Source of the DNA: a plasmid
Sequence record: NZ_CP031419.1
Strand: one strand, 5' to 3'
DNA: 64,000 bases
Below, piece after piece: positions 12,903 through 27,372 of this stretch. Below the pieces are notes generated by a model that worked only from the letters and a program-made list of their open reading frames with translations, did not search any database and had not been told where the DNA came from. Each line of letters starts with the position of its first letter. Within the stretch, counting starts at the first letter, position 1. The position numbers were made by a program, and so were the translations under genes.

Positions 12903-13073
12903 CGTCGCTTCTTCTCTCTCGCGGTGGCGGGGTGTCGAAGTGTCGAATCAGGGCGATTCGCTTGCTAAGCTTGGCGATGCCCTTCTTTTGCGAGTGGGGC
13001 ACTTTCGGGCGGCCTGGCGTGTCCGAGCTGCGGTCTTCGCGACCGAGGCTTCGCCGGCCGCCCGAGCCATGTC

Positions 13074-13778
13074 CTAGGAGCCCTCCAGGAACGCCGTGAG
13101 CGCCGCTGCGGCGGCGATGCTGGGTTCGGGCTCCCCGGCGTGCGGCCAGTCCTCCACGTGCAAGCTCAGGTCATCCCAGAGCTTTCGGGCTTCGGCGATC
13201 AGCACGGCCCGGTCGATACCGGTGCGGCCGTTCACCCACTCGGCCAAGTTCGGGCAATAGTGCTCCCCGGCCCAACCCTCGGCGATGGCCCTGGCCTCGT
13301 ACGCGGTGATCACGGTGTCGAAGCTGCCGTCGGTGTAGATGCGCTGGGCGACCGCTTCGTAGACGCTGGGCACCGTTTCAGTGGTTTGCCAGACACGCAC
13401 CTCGGTGGTGAAGGTCAGCACGTCACCGGGCATCTCCTCGTCGCGACGGTCGAGCCAGAACGGTGCCACCTCGGCTCTGGGGACACTGGTCAGGCTTTCG
13501 CGGTCGATGCACTTGTTGCCGTACATGCCGGAGGTGCCGGTGTAGTCGATGCTCCCATCGGGATCGAGAATGAAGCCGTAATCGGGGTCGTCCCCGCAGG
13601 CGAACAACTCGCCGCTGTAGGCAGTGACCCACAAACGGGAGCGGTACCCGCCGGGGTGAACGAGGATATCGCCGGTCCAGGGGCTGGTGGGCCCGGCCGC
13701 ACGGGCCACGACGCCGCGGCGAGCGCGGGCCTCATCGGCGGTGGTCCAGCGGGAGCGGTCGAACATCGTGAATGGCAT
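13074..13778 (-). CDS. hypothetical protein immediately downstream of the C5 methyltransferase (candidate cognate nuclease, unproven)
   Basis: The unbiased ~235-aa C-terminal part of the long track ORF 13074..15149. GGAAGGA RBS before the MPFTMFD start; the alternative start is 13805. No recognisable domain. Confidence 0.5.
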   Translation of the reverse strand: MPFTMFDRSRWTTADEARARRGVVARAAGPTSPWTGDILVHPGGYRSRLWVTAYSGELFACGDDPDYGFILDPDGSIDYTGTSGMYGNKCIDRESLTSVPRAEVAPFWLDRRDEEMPGDVLTFTTEVRVWQTTETVPSVYEAVAQRIYTDGSFDTVITAYEARAIAEGWAGEHYCPNLAEWVNGRTGIDRAVLIAEARKLWDDLSLHVEDWPHAGEPEPSIAAAAALTAFLEGS

Positions 13779-13862
13779 CGGAGGAAGTCCTTCCGGAGAA
13801 GTCATGGGGGCCAGGGGTTTCAATCGCGGATGGGGTTGCGGGAGTGGACGAGAAAGGAAGGG

Positions 13863-13898
13863 CCAGGGAGGGGGCCCGGTGTGCGGGCCCCCTCCCTG
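13863..13898 (-). terminator. perfect 16-bp inverted repeat between the C5-MTase stop and the next gene
   Basis: CCAGGGAGGGGGCCCG gtgtg CGGGCCCCCTCCCTGG. It also carries the gagtgg..gaagg leader motif. Confidence 0.4.
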
Positions 13899-13903
13899 GT
13901 GGA

Positions 13904-15583
13904 TCACGCCGCCGGGGTGTAGCGGTCGAGCTCTTCGCCGGTGATGGCCTCCACCAGCGCAGAGATCAAAATCTCGGCAGCGGGCGGGGTGACGGCGTTG
14001 CCGAGCTGGCGCACCCGTTGGCGCTTGTTGCCGAGCACGATGTAGTCCTTGCGGAACGCCATCGCGTCCTGGATCTCGTGCGGCTCCAACATGCGGAACC
14101 GAGTGTTCTCGATGTCGCGCTCGGTGATCATGTCGACCAGAGCGAACCGGTCGCGGGTGCTGACCGTGCCCAGCGGTTCGGTGGCGGGCCGGGCGGTGCC
14201 GGTGCTGTAGTAGGGCAGCAGCAGCGTGTTCCACAGCTCGGGCGACATCCCGGCGGGCGGCGTGACCAGGCCGTGGTGATTGCCGCTGGCGGTGACGGTG
14301 GCCAGGGCCTCGGTCACCGGACGCGCGTCCGAGGAACCGCCGCGCAGCTCGGCGACGAAGGGGAGGAACGCCACCGCCGTCTCGTTGCGGGTGGTCTGGG
14401 TGCGCAGCGGCATCGAGGCCAGCTGGGCTTCCTTGCCGTCGCGACCCTCCATCGGAATCATCAGCGGCGGCGGCACGACCAGGCCGTGGTTGGAGCCGTC
14501 GGCAACGACCGTGGCGAGGGGTTCGTTCAGCCCGATCGTGCGGGGGCGGTCCGAGCGCAGCAGCGCCAGGAACGGCTGCGGGATCGCGAGCCCGTCGTTC
14601 TCCCGGGTGGTGCGGGCGGCCATGGGCCCTGTGACCTGGGTGGCGTCGTCGCGCCAGGTTCCCCCGGCGGGGACCATCATCGGCATCATCGAGGCGTAGC
14701 GGCGCATCCCGACGCGAATGCGTTCCATGGTCTTGGGAGCCAGAGGCTTGTCCCGGTCGCCGATGCGGGTGCCCGGCAGGGTCCAGTCGATCGCGGCGGC
14801 CGCCGGGAGCGCGGGCGGCTCCACGATCGAGTTGCGGCAGCTGACGCGAGGGCAGCGGTACACGTACTGGGTGCGGTAGCGCCCCATGTCGGCATTGGGC
14901 TTCTTGAAGACCTGGAGGGCGCTCACCCACTCGTCGCAGGCCAGGCAGTACGACAACGGGCGGAGCCACTTGTTCCAGTCGGGCTCGCGGCCGAGCTTGA
15001 GATCCCAGTAGGCGACGTAGAGCCGGTCCCGGGACTGCGGGGCCGCCGGAGTGCGAACCGGCTGGGCATGGCTGGAGTTGAGGGCGATGACCTTGACCCC
15101 GTAGCCCAGGGCCCGGATCTCGCCGATCCAGCGGTTCCACTGGTCCCACTGACGGACCTCGACCACGTTCTCCACGACCCCGGCGCGGACCCGGCCACCG
15201 CGCTCGATCACGCCGCGCAGGTACATCGGGACCTCTTCCATCAGCGCCCTGCTGCGGTCGGCTTCCTCATCGCGCTGAAGGTCGAGGAGGTCACCTTGGA
15301 GGGTGTTGTCGTAGTCGCGCTTCTTGCCGCGCGCCGAGGACCACTGCGGGCACTCCGGCGAGGCCCAGAAGATATCGGCCACAGGCCATTTCACGATCTG
15401 TTCTTTGGCCTCTTCGGTGCTCAGGTCTCCGAGGAAGTGATCGGCCTCGGGGTAGTTGGTGGCATGGGTCTCGATGGCCTTCGACCAGTGGTTCGCCGCG
15501 CGGGTGACGCGCACACCGGGCACCTTCGATGCGCCCTGAGTGGAGCCGCCAGCGCCGCAGAACCAATCCATCAATTCGAGCAT
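13904..15583 (-). CDS. DNA (cytosine-5)-methyltransferase
   Basis: Motif I MDWFCGAGG, motif IV SPECPQWS (PC motif) and motif X QLGNAVTPP. GAAGGGA RBS. Confidence 0.9.
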   Translation of the reverse strand: MLELMDWFCGAGGSTQGASKVPGVRVTRAANHWSKAIETHATNYPEADHFLGDLSTEEAKEQIVKWPVADIFWASPECPQWSSARGKKRDYDNTLQGDLLDLQRDEEADRSRALMEEVPMYLRGVIERGGRVRAGVVENVVEVRQWDQWNRWIGEIRALGYGVKVIALNSSHAQPVRTPAAPQSRDRLYVAYWDLKLGREPDWNKWLRPLSYCLACDEWVSALQVFKKPNADMGRYRTQYVYRCPRVSCRNSIVEPPALPAAAAIDWTLPGTRIGDRDKPLAPKTMERIRVGMRRYASMMPMMVPAGGTWRDDATQVTGPMAARTTRENDGLAIPQPFLALLRSDRPRTIGLNEPLATVVADGSNHGLVVPPPLMIPMEGRDGKEAQLASMPLRTQTTRNETAVAFLPFVAELRGGSSDARPVTEALATVTASGNHHGLVTPPAGMSPELWNTLLLPYYSTGTARPATEPLGTVSTRDRFALVDMITERDIENTRFRMLEPHEIQDAMAFRKDYIVLGNKRQRVRQLGNAVTPPAAEILISALVEAITGEELDRYTPAA

Positions 15584-16019
15584 GGGAATCGTCCCTTCGT
15601 GATTTGCGAGTGGGTCGAAGAAGGCGGGGTGTCCGGTCCCGCTTCCTTCTATGTCATATATTACCCGTTAAAGTTGATCGAGGTCAAGAACTTTCTTGAC
15701 GTGTCTTTTATCGAAATTATCTGTGCGGCAACAGCTTTCGATTCTCCTGCCGACCTGGGGATCGGGGCCGCAAACGCTACCGATACAATGGATGTTTTAG
15801 ATACACTGGAAGTGTTCGAAAAGTGCCCGCTCCCCGCGTTCGCCCACGTCAACGGAGCCGGAAGGGCTCGACAACGGCGTCGGGCCCAGCGGCGAACCCG
15901 CGAGCAGACACCGATCACACGAGAACCGCTGAGCGCTCGCGCGTCTCGGACCGGCCGCATACGTCGGAACGAGGTGGAAGACTTGCGGGCGAACGAGGCG
16001 TGGCCGACGCAACCGAACG

Positions 16020-16964
16020 ATGGAGCAGCCGATGACCGATGCCAGATCCGACCCCGCCGCACCCGAGGCGAGCCTCGGGGACCTCCAGGCCGAGGCGATC
16101 ACCCTGCTCACCCGCGTCTCGAGGATGCAGCGCTCCCGTCCGGCGGCGAACGGCGCTGCGGCCGCCCGCGCGACCGATCCGATCGACTTCGCCGAATTCG
16201 TCACCCAGGTGATGGCCGGAGTGGCCGCCAACCGGGGCGGCGTCGCCGTGCTGGCCGGTCGGCCCGGCAGCTGGGAGGCCGACAAACTGCGCGACATGCT
16301 CTACAGCACCGTCGGCGAGGACGAATGGGCGCTGGCCGAGCACCGCACCGAACCCGTGGTGATCCCGCTCGCGATCGAGGAAGTCCTGATCGACGCCGGG
16401 GAGCCCGAGGAATACGAACCCGAGGACCGCGCCCAGGAGATCGTCCGGCGCGCCCAGACCGCCGGCCTCAGCGTGGACGAATGGCTGACCCGCTGGAACG
16501 GCCGCGAACCGGTCTTCACCCGATGGCGGCCGTTGATGAAGCCCGAGGACCACTACGACGAGCAGGTCAACGCGGTCGAGAACCGCCACGACGATGCCTA
16601 CACCGCCCTCGAGGCCCGCTACCCCGAGGACACCGACTACAGCGTCTACGCCGCCGAGGCCGAGCAGCTCGACGCGCAGCGTGACGCCGAACTCGCCGCG
16701 CTGCGGGAGCGGTGGCGTCGGCGCTACCAGCGCTACGCCACCGCATTCGAGGCGGCCGTGCGGGCCAAGGCCGACGAGCTCGGGGTGCGGGTACCGCTCG
16801 AAGTCCAGGTCGAGACGGACCCGGACCGAACCTGGGACGCCCGCCAGAACATCGCTCCCGGCTGGGCCGACGCCGACCGGCTCGCCGTCCGCCTGTACGA
16901 GCACGCCCGCGAAGTCACCCCCACCGCCCTTCTGACCACCGACGAGCCCGACACCGAAGGCTGA
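16020..16964 (+). CDS. acidic hypothetical protein
   Basis: 314 aa, strongly acidic, unbiased. First gene of a five-gene plus-strand operon with 4-nt overlaps. Confidence 0.6.
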   Translation: MEQPMTDARSDPAAPEASLGDLQAEAITLLTRVSRMQRSRPAANGAAAARATDPIDFAEFVTQVMAGVAANRGGVAVLAGRPGSWEADKLRDMLYSTVGEDEWALAEHRTEPVVIPLAIEEVLIDAGEPEEYEPEDRAQEIVRRAQTAGLSVDEWLTRWNGREPVFTRWRPLMKPEDHYDEQVNAVENRHDDAYTALEARYPEDTDYSVYAAEAEQLDAQRDAELAALRERWRRRYQRYATAFEAAVRAKADELGVRVPLEVQVETDPDRTWDARQNIAPGWADADRLAVRLYEHAREVTPTALLTTDEPDTEG

Positions 16965-16970
16965 GGCCCC

Positions 16971-17288
16971 ATGACCGCCGAGAGCGCCCCCAAAACCCCA
17001 CCGGCACAGCGGGTTCTGACCGTCGGGCAGATCCGCGAAGCCCTTGCACAGTTCCCCGACGATCTCCCGCTGATGGTGTGCGTTCCCGTCGACGACGACA
17101 CCTACGAAAGCTACGGAGTCACGATGGGCCCCTACCACCAGCGGGCTGACTGGGGCGACGGGCTCGGCCCGGTCGCTGACGAACGCTACGTCGCCATCGA
17201 CGCCATGGCGTACTTCCTTGCTCTGCGAGAGGAGCTGGAGATCACCTCCGCCGACTCGGTCGCATCCGAGCAGGAGGCCGGACTGTGA
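16971..17288 (+). CDS. hypothetical protein
   Basis: 105 aa with protein-like composition. Overlaps the next gene. Confidence 0.55.
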   Translation: MTAESAPKTPPAQRVLTVGQIREALAQFPDDLPLMVCVPVDDDTYESYGVTMGPYHQRADWGDGLGPVADERYVAIDAMAYFLALREELEITSADSVASEQEAGL

Positions 17289-17728
17289 GCACACCCCGGA
17301 ACCCGTCGAGTCGCGAAACCGCCACCACCGGAAGGGAACTCGTCAAGTACGAGCCCTACCTTGAGCTCGTCTCGCGGCTGTGGTTCGCGGCGGCCGTGAA
17401 CCCGAACCGCCTCGCCGAGAAGATCGCGAGAACGACCCGCTTGAGCCGCAGCAGCTCGGTCATTTTCGTCGACGAACCGGTGACCTGGGAGACGCTGCCG
17501 CAGCGGCTCGCCGAGCGCCGACGCGACTACGCCGGGTACTTCGCGTCCCTGCCCCCGGTGGAGGCCGCCGCCTCTCGGCGGGGCTTGCTCCAGCGGCCCA
17601 CGCCGGAGATGGAGGCTACCGTCGCGGAGGCCGCCGCGCGGGTCTTCGCGCGGAGACAACAACCCGGCCCGGCTCAAAAATCCCAGCGCGCCAACGACAC
17701 CCACGCATCCGAGGGGGAACACCGATGA
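17285..17728 (+). CDS. hypothetical protein
   Basis: 147 aa. Translationally coupled (ATGA) with its neighbours. Confidence 0.5.
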   Translation: MSTPRNPSSRETATTGRELVKYEPYLELVSRLWFAAAVNPNRLAEKIARTTRLSRSSSVIFVDEPVTWETLPQRLAERRRDYAGYFASLPPVEAAASRRGLLQRPTPEMEATVAEAAARVFARRQQPGPAQKSQRANDTHASEGEHR

Positions 17729-17976
17729 AGGATCTCACCGCGACCGACCGACGCTTGGGCGAGGCCCTGGCCCAGCGTGACGAGGCGGCCCTGTCCAAGG
17801 TGGCCGACGAATTCGCCGCCGCCGGGCTGCCCGCCATGGCGCAGCTGTTGCGCGACCGCGGGACCGCAGGCGCAGCAGGGTTGCTGTCGGGGTTGACCGG
17901 GTGGTCGGTTCCGTCGGCGCACGGAGTCCGCCATCACCGTCACGGTGACGTAACTCCCGAGGGTCGTAGGTCGTGA
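17725..17976 (+). CDS. hypothetical protein
   Basis: Internal start MKDLTATDRRL with a GAGGGGGAA RBS, inside the longer track ORF 17380..17976. Confidence 0.4.
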   Translation: MKDLTATDRRLGEALAQRDEAALSKVADEFAAAGLPAMAQLLRDRGTAGAAGLLSGLTGWSVPSAHGVRHHRHGDVTPEGRRS

Positions 17977-18236
17977 CGGAGTCATGGCACTGTGAAGCGT
18001 ACGGACCCGAAGGTGTCGAAGTCGGGGCCCGGTGTTTCGTCGCGGGCGAGCTGCACGAGCGGGTCTGCACCGATCCGGGCGTGTGTCACCGGACGATGGT
18101 GGCAGAACGCCAGAGGGTTTTCCGGCGGATGAACGAGTTGGCCGCCGGTGGGTCGCCGTGGGCGGCCGACTTGGCGCAGGAGTTCGCCAGCCCCGAGCGG
18201 ATTCTCGGCGGCACGGACGAAGACCCCAGTTCCTGA
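17973..18236 (+). CDS. hypothetical protein
   Basis: 87 aa. ATGA overlap with the previous gene. Confidence 0.45.
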   Translation: MTESWHCEAYGPEGVEVGARCFVAGELHERVCTDPGVCHRTMVAERQRVFRRMNELAAGGSPWAADLAQEFASPERILGGTDEDPSS

Positions 18237-18572
18237 TTCGGCCGTGGCCACGCGTGTGGGATGCCGCGTCTTTGGCATACTGGCTGCGGGCCGTGGCGGG
18301 CGGCCCTACGGCCTGCTGATGCAGCGGGAGACCCCGTTGAAGAAGCGTATCGCTCCACCCGCCCACTAACATTGATGCCCTGCTGACGCTGATATGGAGC
18401 TGAACTGGGCAAATGCGGTTCTGGCTCCGGATAACTGCCATTATCCGGAGTGACACCAAAAAACACTACGGTGAGATACCCCCGCGCGGAGCACCTTTAG
18501 ATACATTAGAATAAATGGGCATGGCGGGAGCGCGATACCCGCGTCCACCAGCGGCGAACGCCGCCGGAGGAG

Positions 18573-19505
18573 ATGACCCAGAGCGACGGGGGAGAGGGGA
18601 AACCGATGACCAAGGCAAACGACCCGGCGGTAGCGGCGGACGCGGAAGGCTGGCGGCTCGATCCGGTGCGCCTGGACTGGGATACGGTCCTCCTCCGCGA
18701 TCCCGCATACCGTGATCCTGCCGAACTGCTGTTCGCGGGCAAAACGATGGGGATCGGCGGAATTGCCGCTCTGGTCGGCGTACCCGTCACCGCCTTCCTG
18801 GCCCTGCTGACGGACTGGGCCTCGTGGTGGTGGTGCATTCTCGCCGCAGGCATCCTTATCGTATCCGGGCTGTCGACCGCAGCGATCGGAGCGGCCTTGG
18901 ATCAGCGGCAGATGGAGAAGGCCACGCTGACCGGGGCAAGGCTGAAGGTATTGCCGCCGGCCCTCTGCCGTCCGCTGGCCCGCGCGATTCTTGCCATCGA
19001 GGACATCAAGTCCGGCCGGGCATTTCGCGAGAAGTATCTGGGCGAGCTGGAGCTGAGCGCAACGGCCTGGCAGATGGCGCAAACAGCGCTGCGCGGAGGA
19101 GAACTGGTGGCGGCGCGGACCGAGCTGCTCGACGCCGAAGAAGGAGTCATCTCGCCCGCCGACCGTGTTGCGGCCGAAGCCGCGCAGCGGACGGTCGACG
19201 AGCTGGTCGAGGGCCTGGAGCGTGACGCCGAAGCCCTGGCCACCGCAGCGGCATCGGCCCGGACGCTGTCAACGGCGCTGGAGGACACGGAGGCGCGCGC
19301 ACTGGCGGAAACCGAGCGGGAACGAATCTCCCGCCAGCAGCTCGCGCGCCGACACCGGCTCGACGCGGCGCTCGCTGCGGTCCGCACCGCCGACGAGGCC
19401 AATTCCCCTGACACCGCAGATCTCGCGGTCGCCCGCGCCGCCGCCTACGCCGAAGTCATGCAGCTCGGTGGGACACCTACCCCCGGCCTGGTACAGCCGG
19501 ACTGA
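18573..19505 (+). CDS. membrane protein (possible start at 18606)
   Basis: Hydrophobic helices (GIGGIAALVGVPVTAFLALL, WWWCILAAGILIVSGL) and a coiled-coil tail. A GGGGAGAGGGG RBS favours the ATG at 18606. Confidence 0.6.
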   Translation: MTQSDGGEGKPMTKANDPAVAADAEGWRLDPVRLDWDTVLLRDPAYRDPAELLFAGKTMGIGGIAALVGVPVTAFLALLTDWASWWWCILAAGILIVSGLSTAAIGAALDQRQMEKATLTGARLKVLPPALCRPLARAILAIEDIKSGRAFREKYLGELELSATAWQMAQTALRGGELVAARTELLDAEEGVISPADRVAAEAAQRTVDELVEGLERDAEALATAAASARTLSTALEDTEARALAETERERISRQQLARRHRLDAALAAVRTADEANSPDTADLAVARAAAYAEVMQLGGTPTPGLVQPD

Positions 19506-19525
19506 CGCTCAGGAACCCCACCGGT

Positions 19526-19720: not shown

Positions 19721-19859
19721 GTTCGATCTCTCCTCCGGCCGGGTGGGTCTCTCCCAGGGTGACACAAGTGACCGACAACTCCGGCACGGTAGGGACGGCA
19801 AGGTTTTGGGTCGTTCCGTCCCGCAGAGCATGGGGCAGCCGGGCCCGACTTAAGGGAGG

Positions 19860-20456: not shown

Positions 20457-20469
20457 GCGGCCGTGCTTG

Positions 20470-20784
20470 TCAGAGATCGAACCGGACGGCGAGCACCATC
20501 TTGATGAAGTCGAGCATCTCGGTAGTCACCGTCCCGTCGTAGGTTCCGGCCTCGAGTACCGCTCGCACGCAGGGAATGAACCGGTGTACGGCGAGCACGC
20601 GGCCCTCGTCCCAGCCCACCGAGAAGATTCGCAGGTCTTGCGGCATCTCCCGGGCGTCGACGACCGGCACCGCCAGCGCCACATCACGATGGCGCAGCAA
20701 CGCCTGGCCGTCGACGATCACCACGGTCAGATAGCCGTCACCGGCGGCGATGGTGTAGATGTCGCCCTGGTGCAGTTCCCTCAC
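20470..20784 (-). CDS. type II toxin (CcdB/MazF-fold-like)
   Basis: 104 aa. 4-nt overlap with the upstream RHH gene. Beta-rich sequence (GDIYTIAAGDGYLTVVIVDGQ). Confidence 0.55.
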   Translation of the reverse strand: MRELHQGDIYTIAAGDGYLTVVIVDGQALLRHRDVALAVPVVDAREMPQDLRIFSVGWDEGRVLAVHRFIPCVRAVLEAGTYDGTVTTEMLDFIKMVLAVRFDL

Positions 20785-20990
20785 AGGGACATGCCCATGC
20801 CGATGCGCAGCAAGTCGGCATCGCTGTACTTCGGCGGGTTCTGTTGCTCGTGCGCGGCGATGCGCCGCAACTCCTTGTCCGCGAGCCGCTGGAGCACGGC
20901 CCGGTTGATCTCGGCACTGACGTTGCCCTCCGCGCTCTCGCGCAGAGCCTGGGCCGTCGCGTCCGGGAGGCTGATGTTCAGTTTCGCCAT
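20781..20990 (-). CDS. ribbon-helix-helix antitoxin
   Basis: MAKLNISLPDATAQALRESAEG, a typical RHH N-terminus. 69 aa. Confidence 0.7.
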   Translation of the reverse strand: MAKLNISLPDATAQALRESAEGNVSAEINRAVLQRLADKELRRIAAHEQQNPPKYSDADLLRIGMGMSL

Positions 20991-21042
20991 GCCACCACGG
21001 TAAAGCGTGTCGCTTTACCGTGGCAAGCGGGCGGGCCGTCGA

Positions 21043-21747
21043 TCAGAGCGGGAACAGCGACGGTTGGGCGTTGGCATTGCCAGTCCAGGACAAAACGTTG
21101 GGGAGGTTCGCGTCCGGGGCGAAGGTGAGGTAGGTCCCATCGACACTGTCGCAGCCGATCGCAGTCGCGTAGTCATAGCGGCGGCGCGAGTTCACCCGGC
21201 CCATATGGACCCACTTGCCGAGGCTCGAGGCGACCGCGGCGAGGTTCGCCGCCGCCGGGCCGAGCTTCCAGGCGGTGTCCCCGGCGAGGAACAGACAGTC
21301 AATCTCGTCCCACGGGTCCCAGGTGTCGAACTCCATGAAATTCTGGGCCGCGAAGGCGACGGGAAACCCGAGATCGCGGATGCGCCGCAGCATCGGCAGA
21401 GAGCGGGCGAGCGTGGCGAAGTGGTCGCCGACAACGTCGGGCGCCACCACGAACAGACAGCGGTCGGCGTGCGGGCGCAGCCGGCCGAGCCAGTTCAGGT
21501 AGGCGTCGTCACCGGGATAGGCCCCGCCGAACACCCCGTTGTCGGCACACCACAGCGGGTAGTCAGCGCTCAGGCGGTTGCCTTGAGCGGGAGTCATGAT
21601 CGCGCCCAGTTCCTCGGCGCGGATTCGGTCGCGGATCGCGGGTGTGCTGGGTGGGGTGAGGTAGAGCGGAGCGCCAGGAGTGCAGTCGTGCCAGCGCTCG
21701 GCCGCCCAGCTCTCATTAAAACGTTCGTTTTGGTTATCGGCAGGCAT
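21043..21747 (-). CDS. hypothetical protein
   Basis: 234 aa, unbiased. A CAAAACGNNCGTTTTG-type palindrome lies in codons 5-10. Confidence 0.55.
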   Translation of the reverse strand: MPADNQNERFNESWAAERWHDCTPGAPLYLTPPSTPAIRDRIRAEELGAIMTPAQGNRLSADYPLWCADNGVFGGAYPGDDAYLNWLGRLRPHADRCLFVVAPDVVGDHFATLARSLPMLRRIRDLGFPVAFAAQNFMEFDTWDPWDEIDCLFLAGDTAWKLGPAAANLAAVASSLGKWVHMGRVNSRRRYDYATAIGCDSVDGTYLTFAPDANLPNVLSWTGNANAQPSLFPL

Positions 21748-21846
21748 GGATGCTTCCCTCCCACTGTGGCGGGGTGCGGTCGGAGACGGGAGAAGAAGGG
21801 CGGCGGACGAAGACCCCGGACCGCCGCCCCGCTCCCGATGGGAGGA

Positions 21847-22494
21847 CTAGAAGGTGAGTGTGAACCGCAGCGCGGCGCGGTACTCCTCGAACTCGACATC
21901 GAGGATCTTGCCGGTGAACTTCTCCCAGTTGCCCACAACGACGAAGTGCCGTTCGGCCAGCTGGCGCGTGGCTTCCTCGGTCGTGTCGACTGGAGTGGCT
22001 GGCGGGTCGAGCGGGACAAAGGTGCCCATCGGGTGGTCCTCGTAGTCGAAGACCTCGACCGTGCCGCCCGGGGACCAGGTCGCGCGCACCGTGATCACGC
22101 CCCGGAACTCGGCCTCCATGGCCCTGACGATTTCGGTCAGCTGATCGGCTGCGGTGAACAGCGCGGTCGCGCGCTCGTGCAGATCCGGGCGGTTACCAGC
22201 GAACAAGCGATCCATGTACGCGCGGGCGGTATCGGTGTAGGTGTTGACGGTGTCGCCCAGGACAGCGAGCACGCCGTCGCCCTCGGCGCCTCCGTGGAAG
22301 TGGCCGACGGCGGCCGCCGCCGCGAGCGCGCGAACGGTCAGGTCGGCGGCGCAATCGACGAACCCGTCGGCGTCCTGGACCGCCAACTCCTGCGCGACCT
22401 CGGTCAGGAACCGCACGACCTTGCTGGTCTCGGTCGCGGGCCGGGTGTCCTCGGTGGCGGGGCGCAGCGGGAACGGGTTGCTGATGATCTCCAT
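21847..22494 (-). CDS. hypothetical protein
   Basis: Start MEIISNPF with a GAAGGGA RBS. Preceded by the conserved leader. Confidence 0.5.
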   Translation of the reverse strand: MEIISNPFPLRPATEDTRPATETSKVVRFLTEVAQELAVQDADGFVDCAADLTVRALAAAAAVGHFHGGAEGDGVLAVLGDTVNTYTDTARAYMDRLFAGNRPDLHERATALFTAADQLTEIVRAMEAEFRGVITVRATWSPGGTVEVFDYEDHPMGTFVPLDPPATPVDTTEEATRQLAERHFVVVGNWEKFTGKILDVEFEEYRAALRFTLTF

Positions 22495-22631
22495 GATCGG
22501 GAGTCCCTTCAAGGTGTGCGAGTGGGGGATGAAGGGGCGGGGTGTCCGGTCCCGCCGCCTTCTGTGTCATATATTACCCGTTATCTGGAATGAGTCAAGT
22601 CTTCCCGCGTATGTGTGGTGTGTGTCGCCGG

Positions 22632-23902
22632 TCAGGCCGATATTGGGAACAGCGCCAGGTCGGTGCCGGTGGCCTGCGCCCACCAGTCGGCGAATCCTGG
22701 CCGTTCCTTGTCGGCGACGACGGCGGGGGCGACGACGAAGAAGTGCTCCAGCTCGTGCGGGCTCGTGCCGTCCCGGCCGGGGACGACCGCGCGGGCGATG
22801 CCGTCGTCCCCGAGCTCGCGGCGGGTGTCGACGAGCGCCGGGGAGCCGTCGGGCCCGCCGATATCGACCCGCAGCGGAGCGCCGTCGAGCCAGGCGGCCA
22901 TCTCTTCGCGAGAACCGACGTCGACCGACCGCACCGATCGCGCGACCATCTTGGCCCCGCCGGTTTGGGTGCGCCGGGCGAGGCGGCGGACCTCGTAGAG
23001 GGCGTGAGGTTGTTCGGCGAGCGCACTCTCGAAGGCGGCCAGGACGCCGGTGAGTCCGGCCGCGCGCACGTAGTCGATGGCGCGCTTGCCGCCGACGAGG
23101 CCCTGTTTGGCGTTGAGCGCGAGTGCGGTGTGCTCCATCAGCAGCATCCGCGCCCCGGCGTCTGGGAACGCCGCGTAGCGCGCCAGGGTGGCGACTCGAT
23201 TGGCAGCGGTGACCAGCGCGAAGGGACAGAACACGCACGCCGACTTCTGCCATGCTCGGCCGGTCTTCTCCCGGATGTAGGCCAGCACCTGTTCCCGGTC
23301 CCAGCCCCAGGAGATCAGTGGGTACTCACCACGCCGCAGCGCGGTGTCGTATCCGGCGTCGCGGCGGGCCCGCGTCAGCTCGCCTGCCTCGAATCCGACG
23401 ACGTGCCGGTACGGCCGTCCGTGTGTAATCGCGGCGATCACCGGGTCGAGCACTTCGCCCTTGGCCGACATGCTGCACCGACGACTGCCACCGACCTGCG
23501 GCTGAGTGCCGGCCGTGAGCATCTCGGTGCCGAGGGTGTAGGCGCCCTCGATATAGAGGCGGTGCGGCGATCGGGAGTCGTCGAAGACGATGACGCCGGT
23601 GCCATCAGCGCGCACCCGGCGGTCGGCCCGCCCGACCTGGATGAACCGAATCCGGTGCTGGGCCAGTAGCGGGAGCACGACCTCGGCCACGTCCCGTGCG
23701 GTGTCTTCCCATTCGTCGCCCACCATGGCGGTGACGACGGCCAGCTCCGCCAGGTCGAAGTCGCGGCTGTCGGGGTCGAAGATCCAGCGCAGCAGCAGGG
23801 CGGTGCTGTCGGCCCCAAGTCCATAGGACAGCACGACTCGGGGCGCGGGTTCGTGCGCGGCGAGCTGCTCCCGCAGTGCCGCGGGCACAGCGGGCCCGGT
23901 CA
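22632..23902 (-). CDS. PAPS reductase-like / PP-loop superfamily protein
   Basis: VVLSYGLGADSTALLLRW resembles an SGGxDS PP-loop. GTG start overlaps the upstream stop (GTGA). The track ORF's N-terminal extension is R/G-rich junk. Confidence 0.55.
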
Positions 23903-24212
23903 CCGGTTCGCCCGATCGCGGACGCGCAGGGCCACCCCGCCCGAGCCCGGCGGGCAGGTGCAGCCCGCCGCGTGCAGCTCGTCGGTGATGCGCCGCCAGG
24001 CGCGGTAGTGCCGTAGTCCGCCCTCGACGGCCACCGCACCGGCGAGGAACATCAGGCTGGAGATGATCGCGGGGAACTCCGACGACACTGCGCCGAGGGC
24101 GTACATCGAGCCCCCGGTCAGCCAGCCGGTGGCCACAACGGCGTGTGCCTGGGCGAGCCAACTCTGGTCGTGCTGTTCGTCATGACGTCGGTCGTGCTGG
24201 AAGTTGTTCACG
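23900..24212 (-). CDS. small hydrophobic protein
   Basis: GTG start with a GGAGGAG RBS. YALGAVSSEFPAIISSLMFLAGAVAV transmembrane segment. Confidence 0.35.
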
Positions 24213-24258
24213 GGAAAACTCCTCCGGGAATGCGCGAGTGGGGATGGGCGGATGGCGG

Positions 24259-24879
24259 TCAGCGCGCCGTGTCCGGTTCGGCGTCGGTGCCGCCCGCGAC
24301 GAGAGAGCGCGGGCGAAAGTCGCGCGCGAACCGGTCGGTGAGCTGCGCCAGCAGCGCGAGCAATTGGTCGCGGGGAACGTCGACCGACTGGAAGGACCCG
24401 CCGAAGCGCACCGCGTCGGCGTCCGGGGCGATGGTGAGCCGTTCCCGGCCGTCGCCGAGGTCGGTGACCTCGAGCCGGTCGCCGTCGGCGTCTTCGAAGA
24501 CGGTGTGCGGCATGACGCGGATGCTGTCGGGCAGGCCCGCCGGGCGGACGCCGTGGCGCAGCAGGGCGACGGTCTCGGGCGTCAGCGCGCTCGCGGTGCG
24601 CAGCCGGAGTTCGAGTTCGCCGTCGTCGCTGTAGGCGATCAGCCGCCCGTCGAGGTCGTAGAAGTCGAGCCAGAGCCCGAACTCGTCGGCGCGGTCGGTG
24701 GCCGCGCCGACGGCCAGCCCGTTGGCCAGCAGCCCGCGAATGATCCAGCCGGTCGGCCCGAGCGGGGTCACCTGGGCGGAGTCGACGCTGTAGCGGTCGA
24801 TGAGGTCGAGCTCGTCGCGGAACGGGGTGTCCAGCACCGAGGACCACGCCCGCGCGTCCTGGTCTTTGCGCGACATCAC
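24259..24879 (-). CDS. hypothetical protein
   Basis: Starts MSRKDQDARAW (ATG at 24877-24879). 207 aa, unbiased. Confidence 0.5.
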   Translation of the reverse strand: MMSRKDQDARAWSSVLDTPFRDELDLIDRYSVDSAQVTPLGPTGWIIRGLLANGLAVGAATDRADEFGLWLDFYDLDGRLIAYSDDGELELRLRTASALTPETVALLRHGVRPAGLPDSIRVMPHTVFEDADGDRLEVTDLGDGRERLTIAPDADAVRFGGSFQSVDVPRDQLLALLAQLTDRFARDFRPRSLVAGGTDAEPDTAR

Positions 24880-25535
24880 GCCCGCCCCTCGTCGGTCAGC
24901 GAGGCCCACCAGCCGTCGACGAGGCCGTGCGCTGTCCAGTCCGCGAGCTGGGCGTGCGCGCAATCGCGGTGTGCGACCACCGCCGCGGCGCGCTCGATCG
25001 GGTAGCAGTGCGAATGCGTCGAGCAGCCCTGAGTCCAACCGGGTACGTCCTCGTCGAGCACGATGACGTTCGTAGGGACCAAGCCGTCGGAGGTGAGCGG
25101 GCCGAGCAGAGTGGCTTCCCGGTCCGGGTCGCCGAGCGCGGCGGCGGGCAGCATCGCGAAATCCCAGCGCCGGGAAGAGGACAGGACTGCGACGCGGACC
25201 GGATCGTGCAGCAGCGCGGCGGCGGCCTGCACGGCGGCCACGGCGGTGTAGCCGTAGCAGAAGATCTCGAGCGGGGTGCCGTCGAGACGGGAGTAGACCG
25301 AGGCGCACCACTCGGTGCTAGCGGCGATTTCGTCCGCGCCGAGCGCCAGGCCGTCGCCGTTGCACACGAGCATCTCCAGCGGGATGCCCCGGACTTCGCC
25401 GACGGGAATGTAGATGTTCACGTGGCCGACGACGCGGACCTGCGCGTCGTAACCGAGTTCGGTCAGCGCGGTCAACTCAGGTGCGTAGCGCACCTGTGCC
25501 TCGGCGACGAGAGCGTCGAATTTGGTGGAGGGCAT
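24876..25535 (-). CDS. hypothetical protein (Cys/His-rich segment THSHCYPIE...HRDCAH)
   Basis: 219 aa. ATGA overlap with the downstream gene. Preceded by a partial conserved leader. Confidence 0.55.
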   Translation of the reverse strand: MPSTKFDALVAEAQVRYAPELTALTELGYDAQVRVVGHVNIYIPVGEVRGIPLEMLVCNGDGLALGADEIAASTEWCASVYSRLDGTPLEIFCYGYTAVAAVQAAAALLHDPVRVAVLSSSRRWDFAMLPAAALGDPDREATLLGPLTSDGLVPTNVIVLDEDVPGWTQGCSTHSHCYPIERAAAVVAHRDCAHAQLADWTAHGLVDGWWASLTDEGRA

Positions 25536-25624
25536 TGCCCTGCTCCCTTCGGGGGATTTGCGAGTGGGGATCGAAGGGGGCGGGGTGTCCGGTCCCGCCC
25601 GGCTTCGGTGTTGCTCAGGTGGTG

Positions 25625-26288
25625 TCAGTGGCGCTCGCGCGGTTCTGCGGTGGCGAGCAGTTCGAGCAGGGCTTCGATGTCGCTAGAGCCCGCGAGGCGG
25701 GCGGCGAGGGGTGTCCGCATGCGGGTGATTACGGCGTGCAGCGTGCCGCGCGGACCATCGGACACTGGATGCCGGTCGCCGGTGCGCGGGTCCACGAGCT
25801 CGCCGGTGACCTGGATGTCGATCAACGGGTTCCGGCGGAACACCAGGAAGCAGCGCGTGGTGACGTAGTCGAATTCGATGTCGGCTCCGAACGCAAGGGC
25901 CGGTTCGGGGGCGTCGCGGACGATGACCTCGAAGTAGCGGTAGCCAGAGAAGATCGCGGTGAACGGTGCGGTGCACACGGTGACGCTGAGCCATTGCCGG
26001 GTGCCCGCGTGCCAGGCGGTGTAGGGGCCGGTGCGGGTGAGATCGGTCAGGGTCTCCACGAACGCCGCGTGACGCGCCTCGTAGTCCGGCGTCCGCCACC
26101 ATGCGCGGCTGTCGCCCCGATGGAACCGGGCGATACAGAACAACACGGTCCCGCTGACGAGCAAGCCCGCGACGTCGAGCCAAGCGCGCCGTTGCACCGC
26201 CGTGTACAGGCTGGAGCCGATCGCGGCGGCCGCCACGAACATGGTCAGGGGGAACAGCTTGTTGAGAATCTTGCGGATCACGATCGAA
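25625..26288 (-). CDS. membrane protein
   Basis: LFPLTMFVAAAAIGSSLY and LLVSGTVLFCIARF helices. GAAAGG RBS. GTG start inferred. Confidence 0.5.
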
Positions 26289-26331
26289 ACCTTTCGTCGA
26301 TAGGAAAAGGAGGGAGGGAGCCGGGCGCGGC

Positions 26332-26716
26332 TCAGCCGTTGACCCACTCGATCGGCACTTCCACGCCCCAGAAGCGGCGGTGGAGCAGCCGCCGGGCGTT
26401 CTCGGCGTCGGTCAGCCGTCCGTCGCGGCGGCGGAAGTGGACGATCGGGCAGCCCTCGATCGAGGGCCAGAAGGTGCCGTCGGCGTGCCGGATTCCGGAC
26501 TGGATCAGGGCGTACGCCTCGCGGCCGGAGCCACCCGAGTTGCACGCGGTCACCCGGACGACGGGCACCCCGGCGGCGATCCGCGCGTCGCGCTCGGCGA
26601 CGGCCTCGGCGGTGTCGAAGTACTCGGGGTCGTGATTAGAGGCGTAGAGAGCGGCGCGGATCTGCTCGGCGGTGCACTGCACGTTCAGCTGTCCGGCCGC
26701 GGCGGTGGAGGGCATG
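26332..26716 (-). CDS. hypothetical protein
   Basis: MPSTAAAGQLNVQC start with a GAAGGAG RBS. 128 aa. Confidence 0.5.
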
Positions 26717-26801
26717 AGGTGCTCCTTCGGCGATGGCGAGTGGGGGAGCGACGGGCGGAAGTGTCCGGTTTCCGCCCCGTCGCTTCGGGTGACGGAAAGG
26801 G

Positions 26802-27212
26802 TCAGAAGGGTGCTTCGTCGTCGCCCCACGGGGCGCTTGAGTCACCGCGCCCGTCGGCGGGCTCGTCGTCCTCGTCGTCGGGGTTCCAGTCGTCGGGGAC
26901 GCCGTCGGCCCACACCACTGCCTTGGCGTTGTGGTCCCAGGTGACGTTGGCGAGGGCCTGCACGTTCTCCAGCGAGGCGTCGTCTTCGACGCGAACGCCC
27001 GCCGGGATGTGCCACAGGTCGCCCCGGAAGTCCCAGGCCGACCCGCTGCGCTGGGCCGAGGAGCTGACTTCCTCGGCCGCCCAGGCGCGGGCGTCGGCCT
27101 CGGTGACGAATTCCTTCTCGTCGAGGGAGCGTCGCTCGGACGCGGGCGGGACGTCGGAGAAGACGACGTAGAAGCGATCGTGGTCCGCGACCACTGCTGC
27201 CAGAGGACTCAT
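26802..27212 (-). CDS. acidic hypothetical protein
   Basis: 136 aa, Asp/Glu-rich C-terminus. Preceded by a full copy of the conserved leader. Confidence 0.55.
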   Translation of the reverse strand: MSPLAAVVADHDRFYVVFSDVPPASERRSLDEKEFVTEADARAWAAEEVSSSAQRSGSAWDFRGDLWHIPAGVRVEDDASLENVQALANVTWDHNAKAVVWADGVPDDWNPDDEDDEPADGRGDSSAPWGDDEAPF

Positions 27213-27372
27213 GGGAATGCCCTTTCGTAGGGTGCGAGTGGGGTCGAAGAAGGCGGGGTGTCCGGTCCCGCTTCCTTCTATGTCATATATTACCCGATAT
27301 ATCGGCGAAGGCCAAGCACTTTCCGATGGGTGAGTCGGATTGGTTCCCGCCCGATCGGTCTCGGGCGGGAAG

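Follow-up and report, generated by a model that had tools for sequence, protein, structure and literature searches.

What is the repeated sequence that precedes a series of minus-strand genes on a Nocardia conjugative plasmid, and at which level might it act? The window, i.e. the whole 64,000-nt stretch of DNA analysed, had been described in an initial annotation as carrying a conserved promoter/leader family in front of at least eight genes. This repeat family is real, with exact-match counts far above expectation. The 20-mer GGCGGGGTGTCCGGTCCCGC has four exact copies in the window for 0.07 expected; GGGTAATATATGACA has three, on the minus strand only (15652-15666, 22565-22579 and 27281-27295), for 0.06 expected; and CCCACTCGC occurs nine times for 2.0 expected, seven of which lie within 12990-27242 on the minus strand. 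The top-ranked family in a repeat search of the window corresponds to the three long copies. Seven of the eight sites initially listed are members. The remaining one, 13841-13898, was rejected: its hairpin (13863-13899) is terminator-like, has 16 perfectly paired bp and another loop, and precedes a degenerate CCACTCCCGC. The number of genes thus comes down to seven. The recurrent peptide GPA(A/S)F(C/Y)VIYYP noted earlier is a mere plus-strand translation of the repeat within a non-coding ORF. All copies are on the same strand, in a block of ~15 kb that adjoins the nikA-relaxase/oriT region:

27210-27315, minus strand: copy A, with promoter, preceding the 136-aa gene 26802-27212; -35 TTGGCC 27310-27315, -10 TAATAT 27287-27292, hairpin 27246-27278, loop ACCGGACAC 27258-27266, box CCCCACTCGC 27234-27243, Shine-Dalgarno (SD) sequence GAAAGGG 27220-27226, ATG 27210-27212; covariance model (CM) score 85.4 bits; fold -15.9 kcal/mol, z -2.8.
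22492-22598, minus strand: copy B, with promoter (also found in the promoter scan), preceding the 215-aa gene 21847-22494; -35 TTGACT 22593-22598, -10 TAATAT 22571-22576, hairpin 22531-22562, loop 22542-22550, box 22518-22527, SD GAAGGGA 22504-22510, ATG 22492-22494; CM 63 bits; fold -20.5 kcal/mol, z -3.8.
15581-15687, minus strand: copy C, with promoter, preceding the C5 DNA methyltransferase gene 13904-15583 (PF00145); -35 TTGACC 15682-15687, -10 TAATAT 15658-15663, hairpin 15617-15649, loop 15629-15637, box CCCACTCGC 15606-15614, SD 15592-15598, ATG 15581-15583; CM 80 bits.
25533-25607, minus strand: copy D, intercistronic, no promoter, preceding the 219-aa gene 24876-25535; hairpin 25572-25607, loop 25585-25593, box 25560-25569, SD 25543-25550, ATG 25533-25535; CM 48.8 bits; fold -20.9 kcal/mol, z -2.6.
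26713-26783, minus strand: copy E, intercistronic, no promoter, preceding the 127-aa gene 26332-26715; wholly different stem GCGACGGGGCGGAA / TTCCGCCCGTCGC (26748-26783) with unchanged loop (26761-26769), box 26736-26745, SD 26722-26728, ATG 26713-26715; CM 24.8 bits; fold -24.4 kcal/mol, z -2.8.
24209-24297, minus strand: copy F, no promoter, overlapping the end of the upstream ORF and preceding the 103-aa gene 23899-24211, itself translationally coupled to the PAPS-reductase-like gene 22632-23903; short inner stem CGCCG/CGGCG, loop AACCGGACA 24269-24277, spacer of 25 nt, box 24234-24243, SD 24219-24225, GTG 24209-24211; the weakest member (fold z only -0.5, no CM score).
12988-13062, minus strand: copy H, a larger branched variant; outer stem GGCGGCCGGCG/CGCC-AGGCCGCC around an inner hairpin CGGTC/GACCG and an unpaired ..TCGGACAC (13019-13026), box 12990-12999, then AAAAGAAGGGCA..TAGCAAG with no start codon for about 70 nt, the next one (12902) being that of a MerR/Xis-like helix-turn-helix (HTH) gene, 12399-12902; fold -35.3 kcal/mol, z -2.0.

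Read on the minus strand, the core unit consists of a stem-loop, a single-stranded box CCCCACTCGC, an SD sequence 5-10 nt 3' of the box and a start codon 16-24 nt 3' of the box. The 9-nt loop ACCGGACAC, also given as (A)CCGGACAC, is nearly invariant and is enclosed in a covarying stem. It has six exact occurrences in the window, all on the minus strand, each 5' of a box at a variable spacing of 14 to 26 nt. An AT-rich box, hairpin, ribosome-binding site and ATG had initially been ascribed to every copy, but the AT-rich promoter box is restricted to the three long ones. In these, a strong housekeeping promoter of the sigma-70 type (TTGNCN, 16-18 nt, cGGGTAATAT) lies directly 5' of the core, and the hairpin starts 8-9 nt past the -10 box, so that no more than about 1-3 nt would separate it from the 5' end of the mRNA. 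The remaining copies are core modules located between cistrons; those at 24232-24297, 25558-25613 and 26734-26789 have the hairpin, box and SD only. Nearly all copies are devoid of a U-tract, the exception being a U-run variant at locus L068, and the sole site flagged by a minus-strand terminator scan of the window is the non-member hairpin.

Predicted folds have ACCGGACAC as the loop in every copy, with z-scores of -2.3 to -3.8 in five of the seven, and predictions for full leaders leave the box unpaired. Covariation among homologues had been proposed as a check, and in Nocardia the hairpin proved to be conserved with compensatory changes. An alignment of 48 distinct sequences, drawn from about a dozen genomes of this genus, has 92.1% of the cells in its stem columns paired; the figure is 73.1% for shuffles and 44-57% for slid controls. 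Most sequences were retrieved via the loop and box or via a model derived from these, and the alignment was fitted to the structure, both of which inflate the apparent invariance and pairing. All 12 stem pairs show changes on both sides, and there are 91 compensatory cells for 20.8 expected. The GGACAC and CACTCGC motifs are 98-100% conserved across these genomes and at least eight gene contexts, whereas stems, internal loops and spacer diverge freely among copies; that loop and box are identical could be due in part to concerted evolution among the copies. A G-U pair is present in the commonest stem, which folds at -15.9 kcal/mol (z -2.8) as RNA and at -7.3 kcal/mol (z -1.6) as DNA, and the counts of G-U (26) and A-C (20) in stems do not identify the functional strand. 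The element had been suspected to be a 5'-UTR RNA element or an operator. Its promoter and 5'-leader character is borne out, but conservation of the loop and downstream box rather than the stem argues against a classical double-stranded operator.

We then considered the distribution of the element in Nocardia, where it is found 5' of at least eight unrelated protein families with a constant box-to-start distance of 16-24 nt. In one protein family, the module comes with a promoter in one species and without it in others; thus, the hairpin-box-SD unit is tied to gene starts, not to promoters. TAATAT is kept in 30 of 30 distinct promoter copies, most with a TTGNCN-type -35 at 16-18 nt, and the hairpin follows their -10 by 8-9 nt. 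A motif-blind sampling used homologues of the 219-aa protein as entry points. Each of the four neighbourhoods newly obtained in this way (homologues of 65-84% identity) contains the element, with further stem sequences, e.g. CCGAGGGGGCGG/CCGCCCCCTCGG and GGUGGG/CCUGCC; four other homologues came from genomes or contigs in which the motif was already known. On a complete 142.5-kb plasmid, all copies are on the same strand within a ~22-kb span adjoining the relaxase gene. The branched variant also occurs in other Nocardia elements, with covarying inner hairpins, and a box without hairpin precedes gene 9014 at locus L067. In pNF1 and a Nocardia cyriacigeorgica plasmid, a hybrid combines the hairpin of copy E with the tail of copy D; the crossover falls within the box, and the two genes (1.2 kb) that separate these copies in the window are absent. 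In more distant relatives of the same genes (loci L064-L066), ordinary hairpins take the place of the element, which is thus dispensable for those genes. No family in Rfam matches the element, and outside Nocardia the hits to its pattern have no hairpin.

The block lies directly beside genes for a NikA-like protein and a MOBP relaxase and a conserved oriT-like region, and the HTH gene preceded by copy H closes it. Tyrosine recombinase genes are found at the distal end of the array (8780-10072 in the window; also at locus L002). The transfer direction is ambiguous, since two nick readings are equally plausible: on the minus strand an inverted repeat followed by ATATCTTG|CTC, which we take to resemble the IncP-type ATCCTG|C consensus, and on the plus strand an RSF1010-like TTGCG|CCC beside the same repeat. 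As all motif-bearing genes are co-oriented, strand specificity cannot separate an RNA element from one acting on the transferred DNA strand. A search for trans-acting factors gave no complementary sequence in any intergenic region of the window and no ANTAR or other RNA-binding domain among neighbouring genes.

The reading that we favour, and to which we give an even chance as a whole, is that of a structured mRNA leader and intercistronic module for putative establishment genes, some factor reading its loop and box. We see the element as a modular expression cassette of a family of Nocardia elements, conjugative plasmids as well as integrated ones. It probably controls genes that are expressed right after transfer of the plasmid, as a type of element not described before; its position suggests that it acts at the mRNA level. 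The hairpin may shield the mRNA at its 5' end, or a processed segment upstream at its 3' end, against exonucleolytic or 5'-end-dependent decay and keep the ribosome-binding region unstructured. A plasmid or host factor, protein or RNA, would read the invariant loop and box and set translation or stability across the gene set. The outcome would be co-ordinated expression of the oriT-adjacent genes as an establishment regulon after transfer, including the orphan C5 methyltransferase, the PAPS-reductase-like protein and small proteins of no assigned family. The co-regulation proposed in the initial annotation for the methyltransferase gene, the PAPS-reductase-like operon and their neighbours is plausible, as these genes have the element in common. 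The highly conserved -10/+1 segment may also serve as an operator at which repression sets in after establishment of the plasmid.

Could an ordinary cassette account for these features? The copies might be ordinary intercistronic stabiliser or terminator hairpins combined with an ordinary strong promoter, spread and homogenized by recombination with no dedicated trans factor. Related elements without the motif do have plain hairpins, often with U-runs, at similar positions, the E/D hybrid attests to recombination between copies, and one family alternates between the two forms. However, under neutral spread, constraint should be weakest in the loop, the opposite of what the alignment shows; the box is also found without a hairpin, and the U-tract is missing except in the L068 variant. 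We consider this explanation unlikely. Somewhat more doubtful still is a DNA element on the conjugatively transferred strand, whose hairpins would fold in the incoming single strand, loop and box being recognized by a primase, SSB-like or relaxase-type protein, e.g. as priming signals that make the leading region double-stranded quickly. HUH-enzyme and primase recognition sites have a hairpin followed by a conserved 3' single-stranded box, a layout matched here. Hairpins of three copies also fold with DNA parameters (z -3.0 to -4.1), and the block adjoins the oriT-like region. Under the minus-strand nick reading, the sense strand would be transferred, carrying the hairpins as written, as for EGeRS1 of pLS20, where the transferred strand is the non-template strand (PMC8708921). 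A DNA-level signal would nevertheless need neither a fixed distance to the start codon nor a -10 box that places the hairpin at the predicted transcript 5' end; the commonest stem is weak as DNA, the plus-strand nick reading is equally plausible and the box resembles neither candidate nick sequence.

Loop and box could also be half-sites of a double-stranded operator for a plasmid repressor involved in zygotic induction, the hairpin being incidental. There are precedents in the repressor-controlled repeated promoters of p576 establishment genes, with Reg576 at EGeRS2 (PMC6294495), and, as summarized in PMC6289460, in the IncN CUP/ArdK system. The HTH gene at the block end has a motif variant upstream, and the -10/+1 segment GTAATATATGAC is near-palindromic, with a perfect palindrome GTAATATATTAC in two species. 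Yet stem covariation around a conserved loop is not expected of a duplex operator, loop and box do not repeat each other in either direct or inverted orientation, their spacing varies, and a promoter that could be repressed is present in only three of the seven copies, which makes this reading quite improbable in our view. We regard as very improbable indeed that hairpin and box form a structure-specific, attC-like recombination site at which cassettes are inserted into or excised from a leading-region array. Small variable genes in one orientation, separated by hairpins whose structure is more conserved than their stem sequence, would fit such a site, as would the tyrosine recombinase genes and the presence/absence polymorphism with its junction exactly in the box. 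However, that junction is the only clear one, and recombination at a 10-nt repeat suffices for it. In attC sites the conserved bases are at the stem base, whereas here they are in the loop and outside the stem. An integron-type integrase is not consistently adjacent, other differences in gene content between relatives do not map to the motif, and the tight link to SD and promoter points to expression.

We compared the favoured expression module with known systems. REP sequences in operons and the 5' stem-loop of the ompA type are examples of stabiliser hairpins, which are similarly GC-rich, intercistronic or at the (here predicted) mRNA 5' end, and devoid of a U-tract; unlike the Nocardia element, they are not known to have a conserved loop, a conserved downstream box or a link to start codons. 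Lambda nut sites also combine a hairpin with a recognized loop (boxB) and a conserved linear box (boxA) just 3' of promoters. Their order is reversed, and the Nocardia element is repeated before many cistrons, locked to the SD, with no known N-like protein and no similarity to boxA. Frpo/ssi, the single-strand promoters of F-like and IncI plasmids, form hairpins upstream of leading-region genes including orphan methyltransferase genes; the long imperfect Frpo hairpin has a stem that rebuilds the -35/-10 and needs the transferred strand as template (PMC11541004). In contrast, the Nocardia copies with a promoter have an ordinary -35/-10 outside a 12-bp hairpin, and the transferred strand would be the sense strand under one of the two nick readings.

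Functionally, the element resembles EGeRS, CUP and SAS/ESAS and is a member of none of them. The establishment gene regulatory sequences EGeRS1 and EGeRS2 of pLS20-family Bacillus plasmids (PMC8708921, PMC6294495) are likewise conserved repeats immediately 5' of the ribosome-binding sites of several operons, in a limited sector of a conjugative plasmid with a putative establishment regulon. EGeRS1 has many inverted repeats and the strand relationship mentioned above, but is 420-750 bp long with several branches and no strong sigma-A promoter; EGeRS2 has dual TTATCCC operators for an RHH repressor, none of which is present in the window. The Nocardia unit is 55-105 nt long, has a single hairpin with a conserved loop and a linear box, also occurs without promoter between cistrons, belongs to a different phylum and has no sequence relation to EGeRS. 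In IncN plasmids, the conserved upstream (CUP) elements to which ArdK binds (Delver & Belogurov 1997, cited in PMC6289460) are, in that account, also repeated before several leading-region genes, which they co-regulate, and are also potential recombination points. They are described there as duplex-DNA sites for a known repressor in enterobacterial plasmids, whereas the Nocardia feature is a covarying hairpin. Finally, the start-associated sequences (SAS) and extended SAS (ESAS) of cluster K mycobacteriophages (PMC3203893) similarly belong to mobile elements of Mycobacteriales hosts and are absent from the host genome. Like the Nocardia box, SAS are short, asymmetric and located in one orientation at the translation starts of some non-structural genes, about half of them with an inverted repeat upstream (PMC3203893). 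The SAS sequence GGGATAGGAGCCC, absent from the window, includes the SD and lies 3-7 bp from the start, whereas the Nocardia box is separate from the SD. Departures from the ESAS consensus did not support RNA pairing, and the authors therefore favoured DNA binding (PMC3203893). The arms of ESAS are conserved in sequence; in Nocardia the reverse is found, with arms that vary and covary around a conserved loop.

The initial annotation had proposed a repeated leader before a set of minus-strand genes, and this repeat family is real. Exact-repeat counts were well over expectation, and a repeat search of the window ranked the three long copies (A, B and C) as its top family. The 20-mer at the hairpin top occurs four times exactly (0.07 expected), the AT-rich box GGGTAATATATGACA three times (0.06 expected) and CCCACTCGC nine times (2.0 expected), with seven of the nine on the minus strand from 12990 to 27242. 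The loop ACCGGACAC is found exactly six times in the window, each time on the minus strand at a distance of 14-26 nt 5' of the box CCCCACTCGC. Seven copies of the element were delineated, all inside 12988-27315.

Copies of the element in the window
27210-27315, minus strand: copy A, promoter TTGGCC-17-TAATAT (one match under the scan threshold), before the gene of a 136-aa protein
22492-22598, minus strand: copy B, promoter TTGACT-16-TAATAT (promoter scan), before the gene of a 215-aa protein
15581-15687, minus strand: copy C, promoter TTGACC-18-TAATAT (promoter scan), before the C5 methyltransferase gene
25533-25607, minus strand: copy D, promoter-less, before the gene of a 219-aa protein
26713-26783, minus strand: copy E, promoter-less, before the gene of a 127-aa protein
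24209-24297, minus strand: copy F, promoter-less, before the gene of a 103-aa protein
12988-13062, minus strand: copy H, branched variant

Seven of the eight sites originally listed belong to the family. The remaining one, 13841-13898, is a different object, with a perfect 16-bp hairpin, a CGCACAC-type loop and a degenerate box, CCACTCCCGC. A terminator scan found only one strong terminator-like site in the block, at 13863-13899 on the minus strand, directly 3' of the methyltransferase gene: it is this same GC-rich 16-bp hairpin, together with the pyrimidine-rich tail that follows it. A weak model match at 31790-31855 (plus strand), inside a gene, was discarded.

The core unit, present in copies A-F and in variant form in copy H, has a compact core of ~55 nt. 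It measures 55-105 nt, contains one hairpin and is built as follows.

Anatomy of the unit (minus strand, 5' to 3')
Stem: 5-14 bp, often broken by a small bulge or internal loop
Loop: 9 nt, ACCGGACAC, in copies A-F
Spacer from 3' arm to box: 2-3 nt (25 nt in copy F)
Box: CCCCACTCGC, 3' of the stem
Shine-Dalgarno (SD) sequence: 5-10 nt past the box; GAAGGGA, GAAAGGG, GAAGGAG or GGAGGAG
Start codon: 6-9 nt past the SD sequence

The element is locked to translation starts: in all standard copies of all genomes, the start codon comes 16-24 nt after the last base of the box. An AT-rich box had also been described for every copy; this is correct for A, B and C, which have sigma-70-type promoters, but copies D, E and F lie between cistrons without one. 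A set of 30 distinct promoter copies was collected from Nocardia genomes; TAATAT does not vary in any of them, and most have a TTGNCN-type -35 box with a 16-18 nt spacer. In these copies, the first paired base of the hairpin is 8-9 nt past the -10 box, and therefore, if transcription starts at the usual distance, the hairpin would be located at the 5' end of the predicted transcript, within about 1-3 nt. One protein family is preceded by the promoter form in N. tenerifensis and by the promoter-less form in two other species; thus, the constant unit consists of hairpin, box and SD sequence, and the promoter is an add-on.

In the branched copy H, ..TCGGACAC is unpaired and AAAAGAAGGGCA..TAGCAAG follows the box; the nearest start codon, ~70 nt further on, is that of a MerR/Xis-like HTH gene. 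On the minus strand at 21748-21850, before the gene at 21043-21747 (phrog_15826, a family of unknown function), a hairpin GGGGCGGCGG..CCGCCGCCC followed by UUCUUCUCC resembles the 3' arm of the motif; the conserved loop and box are absent, and this hairpin may be what is left of a decayed copy. In copy C, a 7-bp inverted repeat, GTCAAGAACTTTCTTGAC (15683-15700, plus strand), overlaps the -35 box of the methyltransferase promoter and may be an additional operator peculiar to that copy. The divergent intergenic region around it (15680-16020, 340 bp) is unusually rich in AT and includes a TAGATACACT site.

The hairpin is kept in homologous elements, as the structure and covariation check suggested in the initial annotation required. 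The loop of every predicted fold is ACCGGACAC, and the box is unpaired in the predicted fold of full-length leaders. RNA fold energies range from -15.9 to -35.3 kcal/mol, with z-scores of -2.0 to -3.8 (only -0.5 for copy F). Stem sequences vary, being GAAGGAAGCGGG/CCCGCCUUCUUC in copies A and C, GCGACGGGGCGGAA/UUCCGCCCGUCGC in E and CGAAG..GGGCGGG/CCCGCCC.CUUCG in D. In a model-guided alignment of 48 distinct sequences, all 12 pairs show changes on both sides (8.4 ± 1.2 in column shuffles; 12 was reached in 1 of 500). Standard pairs occupy 92.1% of the cells, compared with 73.1 ± 1.0% in shuffles and 44-57% when the partner is slid by 1-3 columns; compensatory cells number 91 (20.8 ± 4.3 in the control), and the covariation score is 0.503 (control 0.168). 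Conversely, GGACAC in the loop is 100% conserved and CACUCGC in the box 98%, as against 38-96% for the stem columns. This alignment has been fitted to the model, loop and box served to retrieve most of its sequences, and kinship among the sequences inflates the shuffle statistics; a protein-anchored alignment of 10 sequences, free of these biases, gave the same pattern. RNAalifold already recovered the five apical pairs from a plain MAFFT alignment, and four of these pairs show double changes. Selection acts on pairing in the hairpin and on sequence in the loop and box. Wobble counts in the stem (26 G-U, 20 A-C) are uninformative as to the functional strand. The commonest stem, which contains a G-U pair, gives a good fold as RNA but a poor one as DNA, which mildly favours RNA.

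We then looked at the distribution of the element. A pattern scan with one genome per species returned 58 loci, 39 of them outside Nocardia and 19 in Nocardia (N. amamiensis, N. salmonicida, N. tenerifensis, N. neocaledoniensis, N. ignorata, N. camponoti and several further strains). A covariance model built on 15 promoter-type copies gave 55 significant matches in Nocardia loci and none among the 39 non-Nocardia, 35 metagenome and 2 viral loci fitting the linear pattern; all of these are chance matches in which the hairpin is absent. By blastn against PLSDB, the element was found in four plasmids only, all from Nocardia. Among the collections searched it is thus restricted to this one genus, which limits its practical reach. 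To lessen ascertainment bias, we sampled neighbourhoods blindly with respect to the motif, using the 219-aa protein (24876-25535), whose 13 homologous clusters are all from Nocardia except one partial Streptomyces entry. All four newly sampled neighbourhoods (65-84% identity) have the element, with new stems, before the homologue and neighbouring genes; four other homologues came from genomes or contigs already motif-positive. The element is absent from two distant relatives (57-59% identity) and from a chromosomal element of N. arthritidis that has a different (TrwC) relaxase, an SSB and a Prim-Pol. Relatives without it have ordinary hairpins or a decayed remnant instead.

The region of the window is 92-96% identical to N. 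cyriacigeorgica and N. farcinica plasmids, including pNF1. A phage origin was rejected, as megablast against phage records gave no match and Nocardia plasmids match. The complete 142.5-kb N. cyriacigeorgica plasmid NZ_CP026745 carries all its model matches and two variants on one strand, over ~22 kb beside the relaxase gene, and codes for a type IV coupling protein and other transfer proteins. The window itself codes for an integrase, ParA, a 2444-aa methyltransferase-helicase and the following two proteins.

NikA-like and relaxase proteins encoded in the window
28899-29318: NikA-like protein
29315-30946: MobA/VirD2-type relaxase

Between nikA and the first minus-strand gene, the segment 28676-28800 hardly varies among divergent Nocardia elements. 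It comprises, in order, GGTGAGCAAGATAT, the CCCAAAA(centre)TTTTGGG inverted repeat CCCAAAACCCCGGGGTTTTGGG, TTGCGCCCGGGG and two more inverted repeats, and the centre of the CCCAAAACCCCGGGGTTTTGGG palindrome covaries in L069, another Nocardia locus. From this layout, we read the segment as a candidate oriT. The nick would presumably fall either between ATATCTTG and CTC on the minus strand, as in IncP, or between TTGCG and CCC on the plus strand, as in RSF1010, the sequences that we take to carry these alternative sites being ATATCTTGCTC and TTGCGCCCGG; the oriT alignment makes both readings equally plausible. An arm of the second oriT repeat, GGACACACTCGAA, looks like the motif loop (GGACAC) fused to the box (ACTCGCAA), a likeness that may be due to chance.

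The element is confined to one strand of one plasmid sector, beside the candidate oriT. If the arrangement is analogous to that of IncP and IncI plasmids, the leading region would consist of the genes divergent from the relaxase operon; the motif genes would then have the transferred strand as their sense strand, a situation reported for pLS20 (PMC8708921). At least eight unrelated protein families are served, namely the C5 methyltransferase, the proteins of 136, 219, 215, 127 and 103 aa, a 220-aa membrane protein and, via the H variant, the MerR/Xis-like HTH protein. Recognisable products are the C5 methyltransferase (PF00145, an orphan), a PAPS-reductase-like protein (phrog_424), the MerR-like HTH protein and a DUF6011 protein; the others had no match in Pfam, NCBIfam or PDB sequence searches, and PHROGs searches were almost all empty. 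In N. arthritidis, an SSB gene neighbours a homologue. Leading regions have been described with sets of establishment and anti-defence genes (PMC11541004), and the orphan methyltransferase close to oriT and the SSB gene close to a homologue would fit such a set.

A scan of 12000-32500 against Rfam release 15 yielded only four chance-level matches (E 0.05-3) to eukaryotic or archaeal families, none overlapping a copy. The element is a real, conserved, structured cis-element with no prior description in the libraries searched. An intrinsic terminator was rejected: a minus-strand scan flagged no copy, and the stem is followed by GA/AU and CCCCACUCGC, a U-tract being absent except in one variant of L068 (another Nocardia locus). 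ANTAR target RNAs have two tandem stem-loops whose hexaloops carry A1 and G4. This class was also rejected, as the element has one hairpin with a 9-nt loop and no Rfam match. No ANTAR gene was detected among the window proteins scanned, and one is present both on the motif-free plasmid pNF2 and elsewhere on the motif-bearing N. cyriacigeorgica plasmid, so that its presence does not track the motif.

In layout, the closest known sequences are the SAS and ESAS of cluster K mycobacteriophages, which are likewise restricted to some of the non-structural genes of a mobile element, all in one orientation, and are absent elsewhere; the likeness is one of analogy only. The 13-bp SAS GGGATAGGAGCCC includes the SD sequence and lies 3-7 bp 5' of starts (PMC3203893), whereas the Nocardia box is 16-24 nt from the start and separate from the SD sequence; the only SAS-like sequence in the window is a 2-mismatch match at 1364 (2.1 expected). 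The ESAS is a 17-bp inverted repeat with conserved arms, in which departures do not support RNA pairing (PMC3203893); in the Nocardia hairpin, by contrast, the arms vary and covary and the loop is conserved. In L067, a further Nocardia locus, a box CCCCACTCGC occurs 21 nt 5' of a start codon (~8960-9013), with hairpin and GGACAC not recognisable; the box can therefore stand alone, as can SAS without ESAS.

In function, the closest systems are EGeRS1/2 of pLS20-family plasmids and CUP/ArdK of IncN plasmids. Like EGeRS, the element is a conserved sequence directly 5' of the ribosome-binding site of several operons in one plasmid sector. However, EGeRS1 is 420-750 bp long, GC-richer than its plasmid and multiply branched (PMC8708921), compared with the 55-105 nt and single hairpin here, and the dual TTATCCC operators that EGeRS2 provides for an RHH repressor (PMC6294495) were not found in the window. 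As for the known establishment or anti-restriction genes (e.g. ardC) expected downstream of an EGeRS, only the C5 methyltransferase, PAPS-reductase-like and DUF6011 proteins are recognisable. The element belongs to none of EGeRS, CUP/ArdK and SAS/ESAS, its sequences being unrelated to theirs. It also differs from the Frpo single-strand promoter, whose stem rebuilds the promoter hexamers, in that its -35 and -10 boxes are 5' of and outside a 12-bp hairpin; Frpo uses the transferred strand as template, and the oriT alignment permits a nick on either strand. The element is best classed with repeated regulatory sequences of establishment genes, with an RNA-type signature.

With moderate confidence, we propose that the element is a module acting in the mRNA, as a leader or between cistrons. 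The hairpin would stabilise the transcript and insulate the ribosome-binding site, and a putative factor binding loop and box would co-ordinate the regulon at the level of translation or stability. The conserved -10/+1 segment is possibly an operator as well. An antisense partner was sought, and complements of box and loop occur in the window only within coding regions, at chance frequency. It is unlikely that the copies are ordinary hairpins homogenised by recombination and bound by no factor, given that the loop is their most conserved part. A signal in the transferred single DNA strand would be consistent with the shared orientation of all motif genes and with the balance of G-U and A-C wobbles, but it does not account for the constant spacing of the element from the -10 box and from the start codon, and we regard it as quite unlikely. 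A duplex operator is very unlikely in view of the stem covariation and the existence of promoter-less copies.

The repeats have also taken part in rearrangements. Both pNF1 and the N. cyriacigeorgica plasmid have a single hybrid copy that corresponds to copy E of the window through the 3' arm and to copy D past the box, and both lack the 1.2-kb segment of two genes (26332-26715 and 25625-26281) between E and D. The junction is inside the box CCCCACTCGC of the two copies (window 25533-26783 compared with 22915-23045 of L001 and 16060-16185 of L003, two other Nocardia loci). The repeats are therefore also crossover points that yield mosaic gene content, whether or not they exist for this purpose. 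It is highly improbable that hairpin and box form a structure-specific recombination site in the transferred single strand, exchanging cassettes in an integron-like leading region. If they did, a cassette would consist of SD sequence, gene(s) and next hairpin, the recombination unit would double as an expression signal, and the leading region would be a self-shuffling array of establishment or anti-defence genes. Integron attC sites have R''/R' core sites conserved at the base of an imperfect hairpin and an adjacent intI. Here, it is the loop and the sequence 3' of the stem that hold the conserved bases, and the nearby recombinase gene (8780-10072; weak Phage_integrase match) is >2 kb beyond the array; an attC-like site, whose support is a single junction, is extremely improbable. 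Multi-gene tyrosine-recombinase insertions, some recombinase-in-trio-like, occupy 15028-20530 of L001, 18223-21250 of L003 and 16630-19657 of L004. As they lie in or beside the motif block of these related plasmids, the block is a frequent insertion target.

Few systems are known by which conjugative plasmids turn on establishment and anti-defence genes in a new host. Single-strand promoters do so in F and IncI plasmids (PMC11541004), Reg576 acts at EGeRS2 in Bacillus plasmids (PMC6294495) and ArdK acts at CUP elements in IncN plasmids (PMC6289460), while EGeRS1 of Bacillus plasmids is an establishment sequence still unexplained (PMC8708921). To our knowledge, and within the reach of our literature search, relaxase-type plasmids of Actinomycetota have no comparable system on record. 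In Nocardia plasmids, among them pNF1 of the clinical reference strain N. farcinica IFM 10152, the element marks out a putative establishment regulon and provides its gene list, most members of which have no known function. If loop and box bind a factor, establishment would be controlled at the RNA level, unlike the DNA-level mechanisms of the F/IncI, IncN and Bacillus systems. Loop, stem and box are short and separable and hence directly testable.

Finally, a second repeat, TAGATACAYT, occurs on both strands of the window at 13 sites (with at most one mismatch; 0.39 expected).

TAGATACAYT sites in the window
2239, 11622, 15798, 18498, 28427, 28436, 28763, 35935, 36240, 37782, 39554, 39627, 39697

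It probably serves a separate regulon as operator or -10 motif and is perhaps the 'first family' of the initial annotation. Two sites in tandem overlap TACATT, the -10 box of the first oriT-adjacent gene, and other sites lie 5' of parA and of the gene for the 2444-aa methyltransferase-helicase. The repeat is kept 5' of the oriT-proximal gene in the Nocardia loci L067-L069.
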